A DNA stretch of 64,000 bases. It comes from Patescibacteria group bacterium. GTDB lineage: Bacteria; Patescibacteriota; Microgenomatia; Levybacterales; UBA12049. Shown in pieces: positions 39,627 through 61,981 of the stretch; the stretch's first letter is position 1, and every line of letters starts with the position of its first letter. Position numbers and translations under genes: made by a program. A model generated the notes under the pieces. That model ran no database searches. It was not told where the DNA came from and saw only the letters and a program-made list of their open reading frames with translations. The DNA lies in the NCBI GenBank assembly GCA_038064195.1, contig JBBTTO010000003.1, forward strand, positions 114,428-178,427, written 5' to 3'.

Positions 39627-41105
39627 ATGTTGCGTCTCTACAACTCTTTATCTCGACAAATAGAAGAATTTCAGCCGATTCAGCCTCCACATGTCGGTAT
39701 GTATACCTGCGGTCCGACAGTCTATCAATACGCTCATATCGGTAATTTCCGAGCCTATATGACAGCCGATATTCTCGTGCGCGTACTTAAACATAATAAC
39801 TATGACCTGAAATTTGTCATGAACATTACTGACGTCGGGCATCTGGTCAGTGATGCAGATAGTGGAGAGGATAAGCTTGAAAAATCAGCCAAAAAAGAAG
39901 GCAAGACTGCTTGGGATATCGCTGAGCTCTACACAGATGCATTTCTCAAAGACTATGATGCTTTAGGCCTTACTCGACCTGATGTTTTAGCGAAGGCAAC
40001 GGACCACGTTCAGGAGCAAATAGATTTGATTAAAAGACTTGAGGCAAAAGGCTTTACTTATATCATCAGTGACGGAGTCTACTTTGACACCTCAAAATTA
40101 GCAGACTACGGCAAGCTCTCAACCCTTGACCAAATTAAAGAAGGAGCACGGGTAGAGATCAATGAAGAGAAAAGAAATCCACGTGACTTTGCTCTGTGGA
40201 AATTCAGTGAACCAAAAGGTACAGGACCCTTCGACTCTGCTCAGGCCGTTCGAGGCTCTGAGGAGCCCCCAGGCTCTCGAAGAGGTGACGCTGTTTCACG
40301 TCGTCATATGGAATGGGAGAGTCCATGGGGAGTAGGCTTCCCGGGGTGGCATATTGAGTGTAGTGCAATGAGTATGAAATATCTGGGTGAGACTTTCGAC
40401 ATTCATACGGGAGGGGTGGATCATATCTCAATCCATCATACTAATGAGATTGCCCAGTCTGAAGCAGCGACGGGCAAAAAATTTGTCGACTACTGGGTTC
40501 ATACAGCCTTTATGCTGGTACAGGGACAGAAAATGAGTAAAAGCCTGGGGAATACATACAAGCTGTCTGACTTGGTGGGTAACGGCTACCTGCCTGTCCA
40601 CTTGCGTTATCTGTATCTCCAGACCCATTATCGGCAGGAAATGAATTTTACCTGGGAGAGTTTAGAGGCAGCCAAGACAGCACTTGAGCGCCTGACCAAC
40701 AGTGTGGCGATGTGGGATAAGGGAGAGGGAGAAGTCTCAAAAAAATTTGAAGAGAAATTCCTAATGGCGCTCAATGATGATTTGAATACCCCGCGGGCTT
40801 TAGCAGTCGTGTGGGAGCTGATGAAGTCAGATATCAAGCCAGGCCAGAAGCGGGCGACTCTCCTGAAAATGGATGAGGTACTCGGCCTCGGGCTCCAGCG
40901 GGCAGGGAAGAAGCCCGACTTCGTTAAAACTACGACGGGCAAGCAGGAGGCTATCCCAGAGGTCGTACAATCGCTTCTGGATGAGCGTACGAGAGTGCGG
41001 GCTCAACAGGACTTTCAGCGTTCTGATGAGCTCAGAGAGCAGATTCGTGGCCTTGGCTATGACGTCCAGGATAGCCCCAGCGGCCCCAGCCTCAAAAAGC
41101 TCTAA
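39627..41105 (+). CDS. cysS: cysteinyl-tRNA synthetase (with ~25-aa GC-rich insertion before the WHIECSAM motif)
   Basis: [26 protein letters not shown]. Confidence 0.9.
40914..40944. repeat. direct repeat copy 1 (inside cysS)
   Basis: CCCGACTTCGTTAAAACTACGACGGGCAAGC; 29/31 identical to 45059-45089. Confidence 0.8.
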
Positions 41106-41155
41106 GTTAGCCTTGAAATTAGTGAATTTAGCCTCAACTCAAGGCTGGGAGGAGA

Positions 41156-41184
41156 CTTGACAAAGATCCCATAGTAATATATAT
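41156..41184 (+). promoter_or_regulatory. sigma70-like promoter TTGACA-17-TATATT firing into a ~550-nt noncoding stretch
   Basis: Near-consensus -35/-10 with a 17-nt spacer immediately after the cysS terminator region. Confidence 0.45.
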
Positions 41185-41189
41185 TATAG

Positions 41190-41745
41190 GTCTCTTATCG
41201 TAGAGTTTACGATACGCGGAGATTGACAATTGAGCCTTTACTTTTACCAGCCATACATAAGAGATCCTGTCCTCTTATACATGCCTATTTAGGCACGACT
41301 TACAGGGCTGGTTTTTTGTTGGCTACAAAGTAGCCAACACCCCTCTTATGCGCTCTTCGAGTCGTGTACGAATAGTACTGAAAAGACGAGAAGTAAGCTT
41401 TGTGGGGTTGATACCTTTATCTTAGCCACAGCTGGAGTCAGTTCGGTTTGATTATTGAAGCTAAATAGCTTCACTGCTTACGGAACTGAATCTAGCGTTG
41501 GCTAGCAATAGTTAACGTTACTAAGGTGGATAAATTTGTCTCTAGAGCGAAAGTTCTACAAGATGAGCTTTGATATCTTAGGAACCCAAGACATGTGTCC
41601 ACTCTCCGATGTAAATCGGAGGCGTAGCGGTGACTCCGCTGCAGGCTGTCTCGGCGAGTTTAGCCTTAGACGAAAGTTTGAGAACTAGGCTCAAGGAGCA
41701 GCAAGTGGAAATTTGAAGGTATTGCCTTCAAATTTCCACTTTAAT
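41190..41745 (+). ncRNA. candidate long structured noncoding RNA (unclassified)
   Basis: No ORF over 60 aa; many local hairpins; ends in a perfect 15-bp hairpin followed by TTTAATTT. Confidence 0.3.
41705..41739 (+). terminator. intrinsic-terminator-like hairpin GTGGAAATTTGAAGG-TATT-GCCTTCAAATTTCCAC
   Basis: Perfect inverted repeat followed by a T-rich tract. Confidence 0.55.
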
Positions 41746-42064
41746 TTGAGAGATATTGTTCGAGTTAATCGAGAACTTCTCGATGCGGGTTTCACCCTTA
41801 CTCGAAGAATAAAAAGCACTTTCACAAATGAAAGTGCTCTTACGTCCCGATGACATCGGGATTGGCGAAGAGCACCCTTATGAGAAATTCGAAGCACGAA
41901 TTTCGAATAGCGAAACCCCACTTCGTCCCGCTTTGGCGGGACTACGAAGGGGCAAAGCAAAATAGGTTTCGTATTTCGGATTTAGGATTTCGATATTTCC
42001 GTCGGGGTGGTCTTCGTCAAAGACTAGAGTTTGGTCGTGTTGCAGAGAGCAACTACAGACTCTT

Positions 42065-42481
42065 TTGGAGACAAATTCCATGCCATCCAATGCTACTGAG
42101 GCAGTTTTCGACGTAGTTGCGATCATTACCTTTGGAGGCGTGATCTGGATGATTTTCGCCACCATCAATCTCTTTTTCTTTGAGGTTATCAGGTGGTGGA
42201 CCGGTCGCGATCTCGAATGGGGCTTCATCGTCTCTCACAGGGCGGAGGAAGCCATCGAGGTGCGTGGGTTGATGCGTAACATCTTCGTTTACTCATCCGG
42301 AATCGTCGCATTCGTTTTTTTCGTTGTCTATCTCTATGTCGGACCCCGGTTCGGCAGTTGGTGGGCGACAGCGGCGTTTTTCTCGGCGTGGCTACCTTTT
42401 TTGTATTGGTATGCCAGATCCTGGCAGATCGCCAGGATAGTTCGCCGGGAGGCTCTCCAAGCCCTTTACGCTAGGGATTAG
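42065..42481 (+). CDS. small membrane protein (3 predicted TM)
   Basis: GGAGA RBS 8 nt upstream; hydrophobic helices. Confidence 0.5.
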   Translation: METNSMPSNATEAVFDVVAIITFGGVIWMIFATINLFFFEVIRWWTGRDLEWGFIVSHRAEEAIEVRGLMRNIFVYSSGIVAFVFFVVYLYVGPRFGSWWATAAFFSAWLPFLYWYARSWQIARIVRREALQALYARD

Positions 42482-42500
42482 CGTATCATTCTTGGGATGA

Positions 42501-42528
42501 GTCTCCCCGCTGTCAAAAGCGGGGAGAC
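42501..42528 (+). terminator. terminator hairpin GTCTCCCCGC-TGTCAAAA-GCGGGGAGAC + T7
   Basis: Follows the 42065-42481 gene. Confidence 0.6.
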
Positions 42529-42598
42529 AAGTTCTTTTTTTGATGGTGAGTGAAAAGCTCCGATTAGCTCGGGATTTTTCGGTCTTCGTCAGGCCCCC

Positions 42599-42615
42599 AT
42601 CCGCAATGTGTGGAT
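42599..42615. promoter_or_regulatory. operator-like palindrome ATCCGCA-ATG-TGTGGAT directly 5' of AGGAGG-N5-ATG
   Basis: Paralogue of 43479-43495. Confidence 0.45.
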
Positions 42616-42634
42616 GTGAGATCAGGAGGAAAAA

Positions 42635-42760
42635 ATGGATCGAAGACTTGCCCTGATAGGGCTAGTAGCCGCCATGATTGGCGGTTTTGCTGCCGCTCTC
42701 AGGTGGGGATCGGTAGCACTGGACACCCTACTGCTTGGTGGGATCTATTGCTCATCATAG
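42635..42760 (+). CDS. 41-aa hydrophobic peptide (MDRRLALIGLVAAMIGGFAAALRWGS...)
   Basis: Perfect AGGAGG RBS with 5-nt spacing; below the 60-aa ORF-track cut-off. Confidence 0.3.
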   Translation: MDRRLALIGLVAAMIGGFAAALRWGSVALDTLLLGGIYCSS

Positions 42761-43138
42761 CAGTAATTTTTATTGTTATATCAGTTGTCTTTGATTTCAT
42801 AGGTAAATGACTGTCTTGGTTTTACTGCCGGAGTTTGGCCTTACGGCCAAGCTCCGGCAAGGAGTCTTAGGAAAGGTGAAAAAATGCTGACAAAATAGCA
42901 TTGTCAAGCGAAAGCTCTCTCCTTCTGATATCGTAGTTTTTATACTAAGCACTGCATATCTTTGATAAAAAGCAAACTATTAGCTATGAACTATTTACTC
43001 ATAGCTGGTTGTTTGGTCTTCGTCAGAGACTAGCCCTGTGTCGCTGGGGGTGATTTTGCCTTCAGGGTATACCGGCTTACGCACCGGGAGAAAAAAAGTG
43101 GTATTTATTATCCAGAATCTTTTCTCTTGGCGTCGTCC

Positions 43139-43334
43139 CATGTCGGACTCGGGAGCTCCGGTGGAGTCACCTGCTGAGCTCAGAGCGCAGATGCAGCACG
43201 GTTGCTGCATATTCTGTGGCGACTGCAGTGCCCCCACAGCGTGGGGATGCAGTAAGTGCTGGTCCTATGGGGCTGGGTTGAGTGGGTCGTCACAAGATGC
43301 TCCCGCTCCGTTACTGGAGCGAATGAGTGTCTGA
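43139..43334 (+). CDS. small Cys-rich (3x CxxC) zinc-ribbon-like peptide
   Basis: HGCCIFCGDCSAPTAWGCSKCW; the start is uncertain (the listed ORF begins with GTG at 43038). Confidence 0.3.
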
Positions 43335-43354
43335 GACGCCCAAAAATTTTTATG

Positions 43355-43384
43355 CTCGGGGGTTGCCGTAAGGCGACCCCCGAG
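43355..43384 (+). terminator. terminator hairpin CTCGGGGGTTGCCGTAAGGCGACCCCCGAG + T7 run
   Basis: Immediately followed by TTGACTAGAGCAA. Confidence 0.6.
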
Positions 43385-43478
43385 CTTCTCTTTTTTTGAC
43401 TAGAGCAAGAAGAATAATCGATTCTGGACGCACTGCGTTTGCCAGAATGACGATGGTTTTTATTGGTCTAGTCAACCT

Positions 43479-43495
43479 ATCCGCAATGTGCGGAT
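43479..43495. promoter_or_regulatory. operator-like perfect palindrome ATCCGCA-ATG-TGCGGAT 5' of AGGAGG-N5-ATG
   Basis: 7-bp arms, 3-bp spacer, 18 nt before the start of 43514. Confidence 0.5.
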
Positions 43496-43513
43496 GTAGA
43501 TCAGGAGGAAAAA

Positions 43514-43777
43514 ATGAGTAAATCTAGAATGGGTGTCCTCCTCATTTTTGGGGATGGTCACTTGAGCGGTTCTCAGCTTCGTGAGGTCCTCACGGATGGA
43601 CCGATCGTAATCGAGCATCTGAAAGTCTCATCGACTACTGATGAGCGGATCGCGAAGATCCCTGAGGGATTTAGCCTCAGGGCAGTCGCAATTCGTTCTG
43701 ATGTCGGCTCTGGAGCACTGGAGGAAGCTCAACGATTTGCTGAAAATCAAGGAGGAATTTTTTTGATTATCTCCTGA
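43514..43777 (+). CDS. hypothetical 87-aa protein (possible small alpha/beta fold)
   Basis: Strong RBS; alternating beta-alpha pattern; no recognisable motif. Confidence 0.5.
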   Translation: MSKSRMGVLLIFGDGHLSGSQLREVLTDGPIVIEHLKVSSTTDERIAKIPEGFSLRAVAIRSDVGSGALEEAQRFAENQGGIFLIIS

Positions 43778-43800
43778 TTACATGTACTGGGCGAGTTGCT

Positions 43801-43828
43801 CCGCCTCGGGTTTCAAACCCCGGGGCGG
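43801..43828 (+). terminator. terminator hairpin CCGCCTCGGG-TTTCAAA-CCCCGGGGCGG + T run
   Basis: Followed by TTGACTAAAGCAA; the same GGGCGAGTTG...GGGGCGGGCACCGTCTTTT context recurs at 44506-44559. Confidence 0.55.
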
Positions 43829-43892
43829 GCACCGTCTTTTTTGACTAAAGCAAAAAGTTTCACAACAGAAATTTATTGGTCTAGTCAACCCG

Positions 43893-43908
43893 GTCGCCAG
43901 TTGGCGAC
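43893..43908. promoter_or_regulatory. palindrome GTCGCCA-GT-TGGCGAC between TTGACT box and gene start
   Basis: Perfect 7-bp arms directly after the shared TTATTGGTCTAGTCAACC block. Confidence 0.4.
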
Positions 43909-43951
43909 TGTTACTGATCATTTTTCGTTATCCCTCAGAAAGGGGAAATCG

Positions 43952-44485
43952 ATGCAACTGTTGTCTCGTCGTTCCAAAGTCGAAGCACTTTCGCCGGCGG
44001 ATCAGCAGGAGGCCTCAGCCGCGGCTCTCCAGATCAACTGCGACGCCGATGCCGCGCGCTTGATCCAGATTTACCAGTTCAGCTGGCGTCATCTTGAGCT
44101 TTGGGTCGCTGAGAGGCGATCCACCAACATCGGTTTCGACTTCCGTCGCAATGGTGGCATGGAGCGCCTGAATAAGGCAATTCGCGTCATTAAGGAAGTC
44201 GACGTCGAGTACGTCCTCTACAACGAGCCGAAGCGGCACTACAAGGACGACTACCAACGATGGTTGGTCGTTATGATGCTGGCCAAGGCGGCCGGCGTCG
44301 AAGAAGTGTCCAACTTTGAGGATGGCATCCTCCACGAACAGTTCATCGGGCAGGGGACGATATCCCTTTGCCACAGCAAGAACTGCGCGTGGATCACCGT
44401 GACCGGCGCGGGCTACAACCCCGATCCAGACACCAATCCTCTCTACCGGAAAACGATCATCTACACGAGGCGCACCGACATCTAG
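43952..44485 (+). CDS. hypothetical 177-aa protein
   Basis: Start at MQLL, with GGGGAA 7 nt upstream; the listed longer ORF includes the upstream repeat. Confidence 0.5.
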   Translation: MQLLSRRSKVEALSPADQQEASAAALQINCDADAARLIQIYQFSWRHLELWVAERRSTNIGFDFRRNGGMERLNKAIRVIKEVDVEYVLYNEPKRHYKDDYQRWLVVMMLAKAAGVEEVSNFEDGILHEQFIGQGTISLCHSKNCAWITVTGAGYNPDPDTNPLYRKTIIYTRRTDI

Positions 44486-44682
44486 GAGCGCCTCGACATT
44501 CTTGGGCGAGTTGTCCCGCTTCGTCGGCCTTCGGGCTTACGGGGCGGGCACCGTCTTTTATTTCTGATCCCGATTTAATCGGGACTGACAGTGAGCGAAA
44601 AGTTTCGTTAATTCGAAATTTCTCGTTCCTTAGTCAGGAGCCGGCGACCGATTGGTTGCTGTCATCATATGGAGGAAATGCA

Positions 44683-44976
44683 ATGAAATTGACAAGGAAG
44701 TCTGTCCTCGATCAGGTCTTCGACTTGGTGGAGGAGCAACTGCGGACCAACCGCAGAAGCAACTCACGGGACGAAACCCAGATTTACGTGGGTGGTATGA
44801 CCTATCGCCCCGAGGTCCGAGAGGAGGATGGCAAGTATGTCGTGAAGATCACGATGTCCTGTGCTCGCTGTCCTGACAGAGTGTCCGAGCTTCGCTTCAA
44901 CACCTGGTTGGGATGGATTCCTCTCTGGAAGTCCATCCAGATCCAAAGTTTCATTAATGAGCATTCTCCCCGATGA
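44683..44976 (+). CDS. hypothetical 97-aa protein
   Basis: GGAGGA RBS 6 nt before the ATG. Confidence 0.45.
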   Translation: MKLTRKSVLDQVFDLVEEQLRTNRRSNSRDETQIYVGGMTYRPEVREEDGKYVVKITMSCARCPDRVSELRFNTWLGWIPLWKSIQIQSFINEHSPR

Positions 44977-45058
44977 TCGTCTTGGGAGCGTCTCGCCCGC
45001 CTCCGCCACGTGGTGGGGGCGGGCGGACAAACCCCTATCTTTGAAAATTATTTTTAGG

Positions 45059-45089
45059 CCCGACTTTGTTAAAACAACGACGGGCAAGC
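45059..45089. repeat. direct repeat copy 2 (duplicate of cysS internal segment)
   Basis: CCCGACTTTGTTAAAACAACGACGGGCAAGC. Confidence 0.8.
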
Positions 45090-45121
45090 TCCACGCCGCA
45101 CGACGTGCTATGAGGAGCAAA

Positions 45122-45270
45122 GCAGAAAGCTGTTTGTAACCCCCGCTTAGCGGGGTGACCCATGTTTGATAGTTAGCTTTAGCAACGGAAGACAGGCCTT
45201 CGCTAAAGCTACAGCCTGCAATGCAGGCTAATCCTACACGGATCATTACAAGCAGCTTTCTGCTTTTTTT
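45122..45270 (+). ncRNA. candidate structured RNA closed by an 18-bp stem and followed by a T run
   Basis: GCAGAAAGCTGTTTGTAA ... TTACAAGCAGCTTTCTGC (17/18 bp) encloses three local hairpins (CCCCGC-TTA-GCGGGG; TAGCTTTAGC...GCTAAAGCTA; AGCCTGCA/TGCAGGCT), followed by TTTTTTT. Confidence 0.35.
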
Positions 45271-45279
45271 GTGGGTTTT

Positions 45280-45726
45280 TTAGGAAGCTTCACCTTCAGG
45301 AGTCGGTGGAGTAGGTTCGCGATTGAGCGCTTGAGTAGCTGGATTGAGGTTAACTGCAGCATCCGGTCGGCCTGCGTGTTCGGCATGGGCACGTGCCATA
45401 GCGTCAACAACTACCTGAGACGCATCAGGTGTAGGAGGAGTCGGAGGTATCTTTTCAAGAGTTTTTGTTTCAGGATTGATCCGCCAGCCACCCTGAGCGA
45501 GTCGTCCTTCAATATTACTTACTCGAGAAGTAGTATCGAGGGAACGATCACCTAGGCTAGATATAGCTTGGGTCTGGAGAAGTTGTTTTCGCTCGCTTAC
45601 GAGCGTTTGAGCCTCTTCACGACTTAATAGAGGGGAGGAAGAGGGGGATTCTGGTTGAGGATTTTGTTCTGATTTGCCACCGAAGAGACGCTTGAAGAAC
45701 CCGCCTTCACCACCACTTTCACTCAT
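45280..45726 (-). CDS. hypothetical low-complexity protein with N-terminal GFFKRLFGG amphipathic motif
   Basis: Pro/Thr/Glu-rich; the N-terminal motif resembles the MinD-type membrane-targeting helix. Confidence 0.4.
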   Translation of the reverse strand: MSESGGEGGFFKRLFGGKSEQNPQPESPSSSPLLSREEAQTLVSERKQLLQTQAISSLGDRSLDTTSRVSNIEGRLAQGGWRINPETKTLEKIPPTPPTPDASQVVVDAMARAHAEHAGRPDAAVNLNPATQALNREPTPPTPEGEAS

Positions 45727-45822
45727 ATGTCAATCATAAAAAGAAAAGCCTGGATTGTCAAACAACAAGATCAGAATGAGAATGGCGGAGCCTGTAGCTT
45801 GACTTTTTTTACGATTTCGGGA

Positions 45823-46914
45823 ATGATAGGGGGTATGAATGATAATATGAACACACAAGCAAGCCCCATTCCTTCGATATTGAGCTCACTTCCTGATGCG
45901 CGTATCGCGTATCAAAGCGCTCAAGACGAAATAGCCAAAGCACAAGGTCTGCCTGAGCGGGATGTCAGGCGAGTGCAGGAAAAAGCTTTTCGCCAGATTA
46001 TCGCCACAAATAGTCCTGAGGTCTGTGATGCTATTGCCAGTGAGGATCAGACGTTCAGACGTCTTTGGTACAAAATACAAGTTGAGGAATTGAGAAAAGA
46101 CACGACGTTGAGCAAATATGCTCTTCTGCAAAAGCAACTTGAGATTTATCAAACTCTCCAAAATAAAGCCCTTGCCGCTCAATCAATTGATGCTTCCTGG
46201 TTGCCGCGAAGTATTCGCGAAGAACGACGACGGTCCTATCTTCATTTTATCAAGGACATGAGTAAAGCAGGTAAGTATGATCAGCTCGTCAGCCTTGCCG
46301 GCAAGAATGATCTTTATTTGCAAAAATTACTTGATGAGCTTGAAGGGCGAAAGGTTCGCTCAGACAAGTTACGCGTAGTTCCAGCTCCTCAGTCTGAAGT
46401 TGAGGAAGCAGCTCCACAATCCGAAGCGCTTCATGAGTCGCCTGTCTCAGTTAATGAAGGAGTGCAAGAAGTAACGTCTGTCGAAAAACCTTCACAGCCT
46501 TATCGTTCCGCCACATACGGGCAAGAGAGGGAGGATTTATGGGAAAAACGTTTTGGTCAGCGTATCTCAGCGCCAAGACAGGAGAACTTGTCTGACGCAT
46601 CAGGTGGGAGGACCCAGCGATGGACGAGAAATCTGGGAGTGAGTGTCATGATAGAAGTTGCTCAGATAAAGCCGATGGTTGAGTCTGCCACTGATACAGT
46701 TCCAACTGAATCCGCAACCATGGTTCAGGTTCCGCAGACGTTAGAGCCCGTTACTCCTGATGTCCATGCAGAGCAAATGACCGGCCAAAATCAAGCGCCT
46801 GCCGAGTCGATGACAACCGTAGAAAATGAGCATGCTGACATTTCAGATGAGAAAAATGAGAGTGTCGATACTAAAAGTAGAGGCTTTTTCAGTAGACTTT
46901 TTGGCAGAGGTTAG
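45823..46914 (+). CDS. hypothetical protein with C-terminal GFFSRLFGRG amphipathic motif
   Basis: The start is ambiguous (ATGs at 45823/45835/45847); the C-terminal motif mirrors that of the divergent neighbour. Confidence 0.5.
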   Translation: MIGGMNDNMNTQASPIPSILSSLPDARIAYQSAQDEIAKAQGLPERDVRRVQEKAFRQIIATNSPEVCDAIASEDQTFRRLWYKIQVEELRKDTTLSKYALLQKQLEIYQTLQNKALAAQSIDASWLPRSIREERRRSYLHFIKDMSKAGKYDQLVSLAGKNDLYLQKLLDELEGRKVRSDKLRVVPAPQSEVEEAAPQSEALHESPVSVNEGVQEVTSVEKPSQPYRSATYGQEREDLWEKRFGQRISAPRQENLSDASGGRTQRWTRNLGVSVMIEVAQIKPMVESATDTVPTESATMVQVPQTLEPVTPDVHAEQMTGQNQAPAESMTTVENEHADISDEKNESVDTKSRGFFSRLFGRG

Positions 46915-46920
46915 ACTACT

Positions 46921-47241
46921 ATGCAAGACCCGATTAACGAGTTGATTACTTTTCTTCAGCAGAAGGGACTCACACAAGAGGAGATCGCAACAGAGTGTGA
47001 GAATTTGACGTGGCAGGCCTCAGACAAGTTCCATGAAGAACTTATGTCTATCCTTATCCCTGAAGACAAGCAGGCAATTGACGCGATTGGAGACGATCTG
47101 GAGGCAGAAGCTGAGATGAAAAGGCGCTATGTAGCTAGAACGGCTAAAGATCCTCAGGATGTGATGCGTGATATCCTCACGCAGCAAGCTAAGCAGGTTA
47201 TGCGTGAATACGACACATCGTCCTCAATGACCGCGCAATAA
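46921..47241 (+). CDS. acidic hypothetical protein
   Basis: 106 aa, no motif. Confidence 0.4.
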   Translation: MQDPINELITFLQQKGLTQEEIATECENLTWQASDKFHEELMSILIPEDKQAIDAIGDDLEAEAEMKRRYVARTAKDPQDVMRDILTQQAKQVMREYDTSSSMTAQ

Positions 47242-47946: not shown

Positions 47947-48006
47947 TTATGAATAATATACGAAAGATAGTGAATAGTAAATGGTTTGAAGAGGGATAGA
48001 ATTACT

Positions 48007-48055
48007 GGTCAGTGGTCAGTGGTCAGTGGTCAGTGGTCAGTGGTCAGTGGTCAGT
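48007..48055. repeat. heptanucleotide microsatellite (GGTCAGT)x7
   Basis: Seven perfect tandem copies plus a partial one, in the divergent intergenic region. Confidence 0.95.
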
Positions 48056-48099
48056 GGTTGAATTGGAATGCAAGCTACAGGTGAGTGTATAAATACGTT

Positions 48100-56068: not shown

Positions 56069-56153
56069 GCGGAGGGAGGGAGATTCGAACTCCCGGAATC
56101 TTGCGATTCGATGGTTTAGTAAACCATTGCACTAGGCCACTATGCGATCCCTC
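56069..56153 (-). tRNA. type-II (long variable arm) tRNA, Ser-like, anticodon loop UUACUAA (anticodon ACU, unusual A34)
   Basis: GGAGGGA/TCCCTCC acceptor, 3-bp D stem with GG in the loop, ATGGT-TTACTAA-ACCAT anticodon arm, 16-nt variable arm, GGGAG-TTCGAAT-CTCCC T arm, discriminator G, CA encoded. Confidence 0.7.
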
Positions 56154-60102: not shown

Positions 60103-61170
60103 TCAGCTAGCGGGGTAGTTACGGAGGAGCTCAAGGACGGCAAATTCGGTTGGTTTGAGATTGTCTTCTTTTTGCGGCTTGTCCCTGTATTCTTTAATAT
60201 GAGGCACGAGGATGTCTTCTTCATAGGTTCGGAAAATTGTCGGGTGGATGTAGTAGCTGCGACAGACTGTCGGAGTATTGCCCAGATTTTTGGAGACTTT
60301 TTTTACGACTTGGGTCATATTTTTTTTCTTATCATCTTTAGTCTTGGGGGTTTCCATTTGACAGAGATAATTTGCGCTGAGCATGGTGCCGCCCCAGGTA
60401 CGGAAATCCTTGGCGGTGATCTGTTCGCCGGTTGTATCCTGCAGATATTGGTTGACCTCAGCAGAGTCGACGGTGTGACGCTGATGCTCCTCGTTTAAGT
60501 ATTGGAAGACCTCATAGCCCGGCAGTTCGATGCATTTACGAATGGTTTTGACCACAGTCGGATTGGTAATGTCTTTTTCATGATCAATCCCTGACTTGCC
60601 TTTGAAGGTAAATCTGATGCGGTCACCGTCGACATCCACATGCTTATTTCGCAGTGTTGTCAGGCCGAAGGACTGATTTTCTTTGGCATATTCTTCATTA
60701 CCGATACGGATAAAGGTATGCTCCAGTAACCAGACGACTGTGGCGATGACTCTTTTTTCATTCAGGCCTCTTGTCGTCATGTCACGCTCTACAGCCTCAC
60801 GAATAGTAGGGAGATGCTTGCCGAAGAACTCAACACGATCGAATTTAGCTTCCTGACAGATGCGTTCCCATTCTTTGTGATAGATATACTGCTTGCGACC
60901 TTTTTGATCGATACCTGTAGCCTGTAAGTGGGTGTTGGCGTAAGGGGAGATCCAGACACCTGTCCAGGCAGGGGGGATGACGAGATCCTTGATACGCTTG
61001 AGGGTTTTGCTGTCGTTGACACGTTCACCGGTAGAGCCTGTGTAAATTGGGGATGTTTTGCTGCCTTCACGGCTGATACCGCGGATAGAGTCGGTGATAT
61101 AACGAAGGTCGAGCTTCTCAGCTTTCTCGAGGACCTCTTCCGGGACATGGGACAGTGATATATCAGACAT
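60103..61170 (-). CDS. bacterial type IB DNA topoisomerase
   Basis: Poxvirus/bacterial TopIB core with the active-site SKxxY context (CRSYYIHP); true start at MSDISL (61170). The upstream part of the listed ORF is spurious. Confidence 0.8.
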   Translation of the reverse strand: MSDISLSHVPEEVLEKAEKLDLRYITDSIRGISREGSKTSPIYTGSTGERVNDSKTLKRIKDLVIPPAWTGVWISPYANTHLQATGIDQKGRKQYIYHKEWERICQEAKFDRVEFFGKHLPTIREAVERDMTTRGLNEKRVIATVVWLLEHTFIRIGNEEYAKENQSFGLTTLRNKHVDVDGDRIRFTFKGKSGIDHEKDITNPTVVKTIRKCIELPGYEVFQYLNEEHQRHTVDSAEVNQYLQDTTGEQITAKDFRTWGGTMLSANYLCQMETPKTKDDKKKNMTQVVKKVSKNLGNTPTVCRSYYIHPTIFRTYEEDILVPHIKEYRDKPQKEDNLKPTEFAVLELLRNYPAS

Positions 61171-61303
61171 AACCAGTGCTGAGTTTAAGTATACAACATT
61201 AAGAAAAGGGTCAAAGGAGACAAAAGGCGCAAAAGAGAGAAAAGGTTGGTGCCGGCGCTCCGGCACCCATATAGGGTGACAAAGCGCCGGCGTGGCCAAC
61301 GAG

Positions 61304-61636
61304 TCACCGGACCGGCTGGTCTGCGTAGCGTTGAAGCTCCGCTTGGACACGCCGGAGTAGGCGGGTGTTGATGTCGGGACTCCTCGCCAGAGCTTGTTTC
61401 TCGACGGGAAGATTCTCGACGAACTGGCTGAGAAGCCATTCCGGTTTTGGTTTTCGGTAGAGAACCTCCTCTGACTTGGGTGACTCCCAGATTTTCCACC
61501 TTGGTGGCCTGGTCGTCTTGGTCTGGTGGGCCTGGTCCCAGACCCACTTTTCGATACTTGCACCCAGGATTTGATCGTCCTGGATGTTTTGCTGTCGTTC
61601 TTGAGACATGACGAGGTCCTTTCGTTTTGTCTCCAC
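61304..61636 (-). CDS. hypothetical protein in GC-rich patch
   Basis: 110-aa ORF; composition differs from the host. Confidence 0.4.
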   Translation of the reverse strand: METKRKDLVMSQERQQNIQDDQILGASIEKWVWDQAHQTKTTRPPRWKIWESPKSEEVLYRKPKPEWLLSQFVENLPVEKQALARSPDINTRLLRRVQAELQRYADQPVR

Positions 61637-61981
61637 CTTACGATAAGGTAGAGCCCGAGCAATCCGTCTGCTTTGCGCAGCCGAGACTCCTCAGGCGCTA
61701 CCTCTTATAACTCGTTGTATTAAAAAGATCCTTTCAGACGTTATAAAACTGCGATCCACAAAGTGGAAGTCTTAAAAATTCTGAAAGTCCAGCGATTATA
61801 GCAAAAAAAGAGAGGAAATGACAACTATAAGATCTAAAGGGGAGTGGGAAGAAAGGAAAGCGGCTCCCAGGCGTGAGCCCGGGAGCCGTGATTGGGTGCA
61901 TGTACATCCCTGCTAATGAGCTATGGTGGGCATCATCGCATGAACGGACTTGCCGCTTGTCCCTGGGGCTTCCGACCCGCG

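Follow-up and report, generated by a model that had tools for sequence, protein, structure and literature searches.

A putative gene-cassette platform with repeated hairpin junctions downstream of cysS in a Levybacteria-like lineage

The region downstream of cysS in the 64 kb stretch of patescibacterial DNA analysed here (contig JBBTTO010000003.1; "the window", whose coordinates are used throughout) has a slightly better than even chance of being a chromosomal gene-cassette platform of a Levybacteria-like lineage of the Candidate Phyla Radiation (CPR). The array spans ~41100, just past cysS, to ~45272 and contains six open reading frames (ORFs), A to F, all on the + strand. On the reading that we somewhat prefer, it would be a promoter-driven expression platform whose ORFan cassettes are reassorted via recombination in repeated hairpin junctions. 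CPR (Patescibacteria) genomes are tiny; recognised mobile elements are few in them, and a great many of their genes have no known function. An original prediction from the sequence had described a cassette-like array of small uncharacterised genes within paralogous non-coding modules, and this description was borne out, although the bounds given at that time (42490–44690) were too narrow and left out cassette A (42080–42481), nearly all of cassette F (44683–44976) and the platform ends. Cargo variability from strain to strain, which had been proposed as diagnostic of such an array, was indeed found across the related loci. These comparison loci, numbered with the prefix L, are related contigs, mostly short metagenomic ones.

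The repeats themselves are not a product of chance. All those originally listed were present within 1–2 nt of the positions reported for them. The 18-mer TTATTGGTCTAGTCAACC occurs exactly at 43460 and 43873, with a chance expectation of 0.05 and two or more copies in none of 100 shuffles; ATCCGCAATGTGCGGAT lies at 43479, with a one-mismatch copy at 42599, and TTTTTTGACTARAGCAA at 43392 and 43837. The CGGGGCGGGCACCGTCTTTT block (43821 and 44540) and the AGATCAGGAGGAAAAAATG block (42619 and 43498) are each duplicated at 100% identity, and further blocks of the array are duplicated at 90–100%. A leader motif reported at 42009, 42580 and 43016 was recovered in part: GGTCTTCGTCARAGACTAG is exact at 42009 and 43015, while the 42580 copy has only GGTCTTCGTCAG in common with them. 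When both strands of the 64 kb were searched with a relaxed 3'-motif signature (G[GT]TC.{0,3}T[CA][GA]TCA), exactly one + strand site per cassette was obtained (42009, 42581, 43015, 43465, 43878 and 44625), and there was no match elsewhere in the window on either strand. Within the 64 kb the motif is confined to the array, and the repeats are statistically non-random. Moreover, the GC hairpins at 42501–42528 and 43354–43385 had terminator-like scores, and at 43789–43838 and 44504–44557 an extended GC hairpin folded with a T-run behind it. The small ORFs, preceded by strong Shine-Dalgarno sequences, were confirmed as well.

The suggested association of the array with an island was not supported. 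The gene order MgtE-Nramp-CysS-platform is kept between the window and its relatives, which points to a chromosomal locus and not a recently integrated island. In every locus the array lies between cysS and either uppS or conserved unknown genes, and the core genes nearby encode MgtE, Nramp, CysS, LepB, a penicillin-binding protein, pentose-phosphate enzymes, ribosomal protein S2 and DnaX. A check of the 20 largest other ORFs in the 64 kb window, all housekeeping or unknown, yielded no integrase or recombinase and no Phage_integrase hit; no recombinase adjoined the platform in any locus examined. The nearest CysS proteins come from Levybacteria/Microgenomates metagenome-assembled genomes (MAGs), and copies of the locus on Hainich groundwater contigs are identical. 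The G+C content of the array is 0.51–0.58, compared with ~0.36–0.47 in the flanks.

Each intergenic region folds into three elements: a two-tier GC hairpin, a long imperfect hairpin and a short hairpin before the Shine-Dalgarno sequence. The GC hairpin starts a few nt past the stop codon, and its outer stem is a recurrent TCTTGGG box. The long hairpin, 46–156 nt in length, starts within 0–3 nt of the preceding T-run, whereby TTGAC forms its 5' base and pairs with the ..GTCAA of the TTATTGGTCTAGTCAACC block; the 3' base consists of the TTATTGGTCTAGTCAACC and GGTCTTCGTCA blocks with the motif GGTC..T(C/A)GTCA. In junction C/D, for instance, TTGACTAGAG pairs with CTCTAGTCAA, and a repeat finder paired 43396–43420 with 43451–43475 as an inverted repeat. 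The long hairpins of the window had z-scores of −3.8 to −6.3 against dinucleotide shuffles. The basal arms of the first of them, ahead of cassette A (GGCGAAGAGCAC pairing with GTGGTCTTCGTC), also occur in L089, L100, L104, L014 and L037.

Comparison of 24 junctions from 10 loci recovered the predicted fold in all 24. The consensus base is 5' TGAYG-NN-GA-G-C... paired with ...G-G-TC-N-CRTCA 3', with a recurrent G.G 1×1 mismatch, and it carries an apex of 20–120 nt that is unrelated between junctions. In the basal stem 83% of cells were paired, compared with 66.5% in shuffles, none of 500 of which reached as high a value, and double-sided changes were seen at 14 of the 16 basal pairs. The covariation score was 0.525 versus 0.237 when shuffled and at most 0.235 with a slid partner, a comparison in which the arms had been picked from predicted folds, which favours structure and counts against our interpretation. 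The arms covary as TGACT/AGTCA, TGACG/CGTCA, TGATG/CGTCA and TATCTCA/TGAGATA, the last in L014, where the outer stem is wholly swapped in a compensatory manner (CTATCTCA...TGAGATAG in place of TGACG...CGTCA). The basal sequence and the G.G mismatch are conserved between loci whose E proteins are only ~30–35% identical, which indicates purifying selection on the hairpin base. The gene-strand fold exceeded its antisense counterpart in stability in each of the 18 junctions tested, with 63 versus 19 G.U pairs. This bias is no more than suggestive of an RNA-level role of the long hairpins, since the G+T-rich composition of the gene strand partly accounts for it, and it is a further point against our interpretation that the ungapped arm alignment has 47 G.T versus 22 A.C. 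Local stems around a TCGTCA "loop" (GTCTT/AAGAC and GTTCCC/GGGAAC) were rejected as the functional hairpin, the long-range pairing being energetically preferred and better supported by covariation; they may represent an alternative conformation.

The short hairpins, found before B (42599–42615), D (43479–43495) and E (43893–43908), had been taken for a common operator. Their structure and place before the Shine-Dalgarno sequence are indeed conserved, with G.U-type variants on the gene strand, but the sequence changes between cassettes and loci (ATCCGCA/TGCGGAT, GTCGCCA/TGGCGAC, ATCTGC/GCAGAT and CATCATTCGGC/GTCGGGTGATG), even before orthologous cassettes: E, for example, has in front of it a hairpin with GTCGCCA.. 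in the window and L089, with CATCATTCGGC.. in L091 and with ATCTGCAGTT.. in L099. Such turnover with the structure kept argues against a shared DNA-binding site and fits hairpins acting in the 5' untranslated region (5'-UTR) of the RNA.

The junctions are set within a frame that is conserved wherever it is visible: repeated boxes, the promoter TTGACA-17-TATATT, a ~70-nt RNA (ACCAGCC...GGCTGG-U7), a long leader and a terminal hairpin. The iteron-like boxes upstream of the promoter (in the window TAGCCTTG and TAGCCTCA, with a degenerate inverted copy abutting the −35) are kept in all platform-bearing loci and were counted as 2–5 copies at 21-bp spacing in L089, L100, L102, L104, L014, L035 and L037. 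The original prediction found no obvious nearby regulator; no regulator gene was found here either, but the TAGCCTCA repeats adjoining the promoter are binding-site-like and are probably the regulator-binding sites of the platform promoter. This promoter, P1, is conserved in 8 loci, the empty platform L102 included, and a promoter scan returned it as the sole sigma70-like + strand site within 40800–45300.

About 60 nt past the −10 of the promoter begins a three-way-junction RNA ending in a U-run. Its outer stem, unchanged across 7 loci, leads into U7, while the P2 and P3 stems vary in sequence and yet stay paired. After P3, immediately 5' to the closing strand, a UUACAGG stretch could pair with the complementary P2 loop AUCCUGUCC in a pseudoknot. 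The element looks like a riboswitch, an attenuator or a small RNA. RNAalifold recovered only the invariant outer stem from a poor alignment, and the folds of single sequences were more informative. At the gathering threshold, Rfam 15 matched nothing in the window except a tRNA at 56070, and a permissive scan of 41050–45350 gave chance-level matches only. The leader that follows has 69–74% identity to its counterparts in L089 and L109, and those of L104, L035, L037 and L014 can be aligned with it too; its blocks GGAACCCAAGACATGTGTCCAC, GCGTAGCGGTGACTCCGCTGCAGGCTGTCT and GCAGCAAGTGGAAAT..CCTTCAAATTTCCAC are near-invariant between distant loci. Neither a conserved ORF nor an Rfam match was found within it, and these ~550 nt may constitute a large structured RNA. 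Most of this leader is missing from the empty platform L102.

At the other end, a long hairpin (AAGCAGAAAGCTGTTTG...CAAGCAGCTTTCTGC-U7 across loci) is kept in L089, L091, L100, L102 (the empty platform), L104, L035 and L109, and is presumed to be the terminator of the whole unit. It holds conserved inner hairpins, such as 45174–45211 and GCCTGCAATGCAGGC, and the single-cassette loci have a simpler form of it than the window, L089 and L109. A 32-nt hairpin element near the array end is a 94% identical copy of 40913–40944 inside cysS and looks like a small palindromic insertion copied between the two places. The cysS copy is in frame and encodes 11 residues in a linker that has no counterpart in other CysS proteins.

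Within this common frame the cargo changes. The window carries A-B-C-D-E-F, L089 has A-C-X-E-D-Y, L109 has A'-X-B-C-D-W, L092 has ..B-C-A.. and L014 at least five cassettes, one of them E-like. In L091, E is followed by the platform end; L100, L104 and L035 have one cassette each, and L037 has at least one X-like cassette before its contig ends. L102 holds no cassette, its promoter and short leader abutting the terminal hairpin, and in L010, a related Levybacteria MAG, cysS is directly followed by uppS without any platform. Overall, the cassette counts across platforms were 0, 1, 1, 1, at least 5, 6, 6 and 6, with ~15 ORFan families; complete arrays from independent assemblies comprise three with 6 cassettes and four with 0 or 1.

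The mosaicism is finer than whole cassettes, with leaders, apices and GC hairpins reassorting separately. The leader of A is conserved up to the ATG ahead of the unrelated ORF A', one leader is common to B and D, and one long hairpin is common to F and the unrelated Y of L089. The GC-hairpin apex CCGCCAGGTACCRGTCGGTACCTGGCGG stands behind D in L089, A in L092, E in L091 and W in L109, and identical hairpin bases bear different apices. D and E are each trailed by different hairpins in the window and in L089, and the B-C-D block of homology that the window shares with L109 runs from a long-hairpin 3' arm to a GC-hairpin base. This pattern agrees better with repeated recombination in the short conserved bases of the hairpins than with a single site-specific crossover.

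The cassette products are real proteins but orphans: their relatives are very scarce, and all relatives that could be placed lie in an array of the same kind. Scans of ~15 cassette families against Pfam, PHROGs and PADLOC gave nothing above noise. Homologues of A form three clusters among 5.8 billion proteins, and A is the first cassette in L089 and the third in L092. The "41-aa peptide" of the original prediction comes from a frameshifted copy of a two-helix membrane protein of 58 aa, which is intact in L092; the conserved C-terminal half (..LLLIIAVIFIVISVVFDFIGK) runs on to 42810 in another frame, and a related copy is present in L109. Since the independent assembly L005 has the same 41-aa gene call, the frameshift is unlikely to be an artefact. 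Cassette C, absent from the earlier list of units, sits between B and D and has homologues in L089, L092 and L109. Homologues of D fall into two clusters, and D stands after E in L089 and before E in the window. For E, five real relatives were obtained among 1.84 billion cluster representatives. Its AlphaFold2 model is confident (predicted local distance difference test 84, predicted template modelling score 0.80) and comprises a helical N-domain and a beta C-domain; no significant structural neighbour was found for it, and no match in BFVD. The protein P0008 (2945 aa, 29 repeats) was rejected as a homologue, being made of low-complexity tandem repeats and most likely no real relative. Cassette F has so far been seen only in this population. 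Roles of the cassette proteins in competition, immunity, host interaction or defence are guesses.

Under the preferred reading, the iteron-like boxes and the riboswitch-like terminator would control access to the array, transcription of which would proceed mainly from the single upstream P1. The case for a single promoter is that no sigma70-like site other than P1 lies on the gene strand, that the gap between T-run and hairpin is too short for a promoter, and that several GC hairpins lack a U-tract: it is missing after B and F and after the last cassettes of L089, L100, L104 and L035. Elsewhere the T-run follows the GC stem directly (C, D, E) or 6 nt off it (A), and the junctions would be passed by read-through or antitermination. 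The junction hairpins might act in RNA as signals for processing, stability or antitermination, so that any combination of cassettes could be expressed, and their conserved bases would double as shuffling substrates. Cassettes would be gained, lost and permuted by recombination within these bases, the exchange being either homologous (or by short homology) or carried out by a recombinase encoded elsewhere.

Besides the choice of arms and the base composition mentioned above, several points weigh against this model. Four of the six junction hairpins of the window resemble competent intrinsic terminators (GC stem and T-run), which means that antitermination or unrecognised promoters must exist. 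Co-transcription from P1 is suggested solely by the lack of canonical promoters inside the array; promoters of CPR bacteria are not well characterised, and a non-canonical promoter in the junctions is possible. Since the contigs are mostly short metagenomic ones, assembly over repeated modules could make some chimeric cassette orders, though the complete arrays counted above come from independent assemblies.

The strongest competitor, unlikely in our view, is an integron-like capture in which the long hairpins, with or without the GC hairpins, are folded-DNA sites comparable to attC. A recombinase acting in trans would recognise them by structure and would insert and excise cassettes at a fixed point of the hairpin base, with the platform promoter serving as the cassette promoter Pc. 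As in attC, the junctions are imperfect palindromes whose ends are conserved and whose centre is hypervariable, with a conserved unpaired position (G.G); the single ORFs are co-oriented, without canonical promoters, behind one promoter; empty, single-cassette and multi-cassette platforms occupy one locus; and cassette-specific homology starts sharply in the 3' arm at GGTC|TTCGTCA. On the other hand, neither the 20 largest other ORFs of the window nor the neighbourhood of any platform yielded a recombinase. The arms are also unlike the attC cores RYYYAAC/GTTRRRY: read directly, the junctions contain no R''/R' cores and end as TTGAYG..GAGC / GGTC..CRTCAA (TTGAC...GTCAA), without the AAC...GTT frame. 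Unlike attC, hairpin types are not bound to the upstream ORF, the mosaic units are smaller than cassettes, and the G.U bias of the gene strand points to RNA. A related proposal, to which we give a similarly small share of credence, is a novel capture class in which new ORFan cassettes would enter, leave and change order within a dedicated expression platform via structure-specific recognition of the G.G-mismatch hairpin by a trans-encoded recombinase or nuclease unrelated to IntI, the same hairpins serving as processing or antitermination signals in the transcript, which would let every set of cassettes be expressed.

It is rather improbable that each cassette is its own transcription unit with a TTGACT promoter, an operator palindrome bound by a common regulator and a terminator, as was originally proposed. 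The GC hairpins with following T-runs after A, C, D and E agree with that proposal, as does the good −35 match of TTGAC(A/T/G) with its upstream T-rich tract, and efficient terminators would require internal promoters. The promoter scan, however, found no promoter inside the array, its sole hit being the upstream P1, and in no junction is there a −10-like hexamer 16–18 nt past TTGAC, a position that falls in the hypervariable apex. TTGAC itself is the 5' base of a hairpin and covaries with its 3' partner, unlike a −35 box. The supposed operators differ between cassettes, also between orthologous ones, and some GC hairpins have no U-tract. Other promoter arrangements built on TTGACT or on the T-rich tract with TCGTCA (sigma70, an extracytoplasmic-function-like CGTC −10, or other) were likewise discarded, no partner hexamer being conserved at a fixed spacing and the bases covarying as stem partners.

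Still less probable is that the junction hairpins are selfish repeats, such as repetitive extragenic palindromes (REP), bacterial interspersed mosaic elements (BIME) or miniature inverted-repeat transposable elements (MITE), in a fast-evolving accessory operon whose variability is ordinary indel turnover, the modules playing no part in expression or shuffling. The apices do look like independently inserted small palindromes swapped on otherwise identical bases, the 32-nt hairpin element has been copied between cysS and the array end, and the small hairpin TCCCGATTTAATCGGGA recurs in several junctions. Yet the signature is confined to the array within the 64 kb, to the gene strand and to a single copy for each cassette, always equally far from the Shine-Dalgarno sequence; among 80 cysS-neighbourhood loci none was found outside platforms except in L011, where it lies in apparent coding sequence and was read as spurious; and the conserved basal sequence with its G.G mismatch implies purifying selection. 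The least credible reading of all is an insertion at the cysS 3' end, namely a decayed prophage, satellite or integrative element, with the 32-nt repeats as att sites and the genes as leftover morons: the direct repeat (94%, at 40913 and 45058) brackets most of the array, whose G+C is above that of the flanks and whose genes are all ORFans, but no integrase, replication or structural gene was found, and both ends of the platform are conserved at the same chromosomal site in distant relatives, one of them empty. The 32-nt repeat was rejected as attL/attR for want of an integrase among the 20 largest other ORFs of the window and because it is missing at the equivalent position in L089 and L091, which have the same platform ends, so that it cannot mark an element boundary. 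As for viral relatives, IMG/VR scans with GGTCTTCGTCARAGACTAG and GACAGTGAGCGAAAAG gave zero or six chance matches without other similarity, and neither the PHROGs scan nor the BFVD search with the E model gave a match.

If the preferred reading holds, this is a conserved locus seemingly devoted to holding and expressing exchangeable, lineage-specific small proteins. It would offer a testable mechanism by which CPR bacteria acquire and try out genes, perhaps for host attachment, competition or phage defence. The new motifs comprise the G.G-mismatch junction hairpin, the riboswitch-like three-way junction and a ~0.7 kb conserved leader, and they come with ~15 protein families that have no known relatives; for one of these the fold, modelled with confidence, looks novel. 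Should the shuffling be site-specific, it would amount to an integron-like system invented independently of IntI and attC.

Some features of the surroundings are worth recording. The array is followed at 45280–47241 by three conserved genes of unknown function, encoding 148 aa (−), 395 aa (+) and 106 aa (+), for which no Pfam match above threshold was found; in L102 and L104, homologues of the 106-aa protein are encoded past the platform, along with low-complexity proteins that are much longer. An ORF at 47986–48084 contains GQWSVVS three times in tandem, implying a 21-nt DNA repeat. At 60103–61662 (−) a bacterial type IB topoisomerase with Topoisom_I and Top1B_N_bact domains is encoded; enzymes of this type are mechanistically related to tyrosine recombinases, and nothing ties this one to the array. 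A separate repeat, GCCGCTAC(A/C)GTGTAGC(T/A)AGT(A/G)C(C/T)CTTGG(G/A)GTAC, occurs in both orientations in and around the arrays of relatives and is absent from the array of the window. The features are listed in Table 1.

Table 1. Coordinates of the putative platform, its cassettes and junctions (window numbering unless a locus is named).
Feature	Position	Strand	Remarks
Iteron-like boxes	41108–41147	+	TAGCCTTG at 41108, TAGCCTCA at 41129; 21 bp spacing; degenerate inverted copy abuts −35
Platform promoter P1	41157–41185	+	TTGACA-17 nt-TATATT; 11/12 consensus match
Three-way-junction RNA ending in U-run	41246–41317	+	stem P1 (outer) ACCAGCC/GGCTGGT; P2 loop AUCCUGUCC
Long conserved non-coding leader	41318–41863	+	blocks GGAACCCAAGACATGTGTCCAC...GCGTAGCGGTGACTCCGCTGCAGGCTGTCT
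First long hairpin	41864–42019	+	GGCGAAGAGCAC pairs with GTGGTCTTCGTC; 3' arm is the motif at 42009; free energy −73.9 kcal/mol
Cassette A	42080–42481	+	133-aa multi-pass membrane protein, ORFan
Junction A/B	42490–42591	+	GC hairpin core 42501–42528, T-run, long hairpin 42541–42591; z = −3.8
Cassette B	42635–42760	+	41 aa as read, small hydrophobic; unit 42599–42760 with hairpin and Shine-Dalgarno
Junction B/C	42827–43025	+	GC hairpin 42827–42858 without U-tract, spacer, long hairpin 42963–43025; z = −4.3
Cassette C	43098–43334	+	Cys-rich, ~78 aa, GTG start; alternative start 43038
Junction C/D	43354–43474	+	GC hairpin and T-run 43354–43398, long hairpin 43397–43474; z = −6.3
Cassette D	43514–43777	+	87 aa; unit 43479–43777 with hairpin and Shine-Dalgarno
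Junction D/E	43789–43887	+	GC hairpin and T-run 43789–43845, short-form long hairpin 43842–43887; z = −4.3
Cassette E	43952–44485	+	177 aa; unit 43893–44485 with hairpin and Shine-Dalgarno
Junction E/F	44504–44636	+	GC hairpin and T-run 44504–44563, long hairpin 44586–44636; z = −6.0
Small hairpin TCCCGATTTAATCGGGA	44568–44584	+	inside junction E/F
Cassette F	44683–44976	+	97 aa, Cys-rich, CxxC motif
GC hairpin past last cassette	44990–45028	+	no U-tract
32-nt hairpin element	45058–45089	+	second copy of 40913–40944 (inside cysS), 94% identical
Platform-end long hairpin	45119–45272	+	AAGCAGAAAGCTGTTTGTAA...TTACAAGCAGCTTTCTGC, then T7
Three-way-junction RNA copy, L089	333–404		
Three-way-junction RNA copy, L100	153–221		
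Three-way-junction RNA copy, L104	3755–3832		
Three-way-junction RNA copy, L014	4950–5017		
Three-way-junction RNA copy, L035	11537–11610		
Three-way-junction RNA copy, L037	3722–3799		
GCCGCTAC-type repeat, L089	85–115, 508–540, 1705–1740		
GCCGCTAC-type repeat, L091	706–735		
GCCGCTAC-type repeat, L109	3745–3775		

Several known systems share single traits with this array. The recombinase-associated rAID-1 arrays of Bacteroidales and the pdif modules carried by Acinetobacter plasmids are alike in small accessory genes, conserved intergenic repeats and strain variation, but they go with an adjacent tyrosine recombinase or with XerC/D-type sites, and no such gene or site was seen here. Phage morons are likewise small accessory genes with terminator-like insulation and variable presence, but they have their own promoter and stand singly between phage genes, without a common junction module or platform. 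By analogy with RNase III- or REP-type hairpins in mRNA and with nut-type antitermination sites, the intercistronic hairpins could process, stabilise or antiterminate the transcript; such elements are not known to mark off mobile or shuffled cassettes. The 3' arm GGUCUUCGUCAA, which is followed by the short hairpin, is loosely boxA-like (GCUCUUUAACAA; 8 of 12 positions by eye), yet boxA acts single-stranded and the stretch here is base-paired.

A closer parallel is offered by the promoter-early stem-loop (PeSL) modules in the hyperplastic regions of T4-type phages, where repeated composite motifs, each a strong sigma70-like promoter with a terminator stem-loop, surround small ORFan genes and where shuffling has been attributed to recombination between the repeated motifs (Arbiol et al. 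2010, PMC2839356; Comeau et al. 2014, PMC4122927). There the endpoints of indels and replacements fall within the motifs, much as the breakpoints here lie at hairpin bases and identical modules surround unrelated ORFs. However, the PeSL motif includes a promoter, while the present junctions have no detectable sigma70-like one, though terminator-like stem-loops are present; PeSL belong to phage genomes and this array to a fixed syntenic site of a cellular CPR chromosome; and the unit repeated here is made up of a 5'-UTR hairpin and two further hairpins whose stems covary, with one promoter and a terminal hairpin as the frame of the array.

Integrons, including sedentary chromosomal ones and clusters of attC sites lacking integron-integrases (CALIN), resemble the array in their one promoter, in co-oriented, mostly promoterless single-ORF cassettes of mostly unknown function, in imperfect-palindrome junctions with variable centres, in changing number and order, and in empty platforms. 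A literature search for integron-like cassettes in Patescibacteria found nothing relevant. The array departs from integrons in having no intI at or near the locus and no attC cores, and in hairpins that do not travel with the upstream ORF, as attC does. It adds a GC hairpin to each junction, a long structured leader and a dedicated terminal hairpin, and its hairpin strand asymmetry suggests a function in RNA. Its logic is closest to that of integrons and the PeSL regions of T4 phages, while it is a member of neither. Overall, cassette arrays shuffled through repeated junction elements are a known kind, within which there is a real chance that this one represents a mechanistically new capture system.

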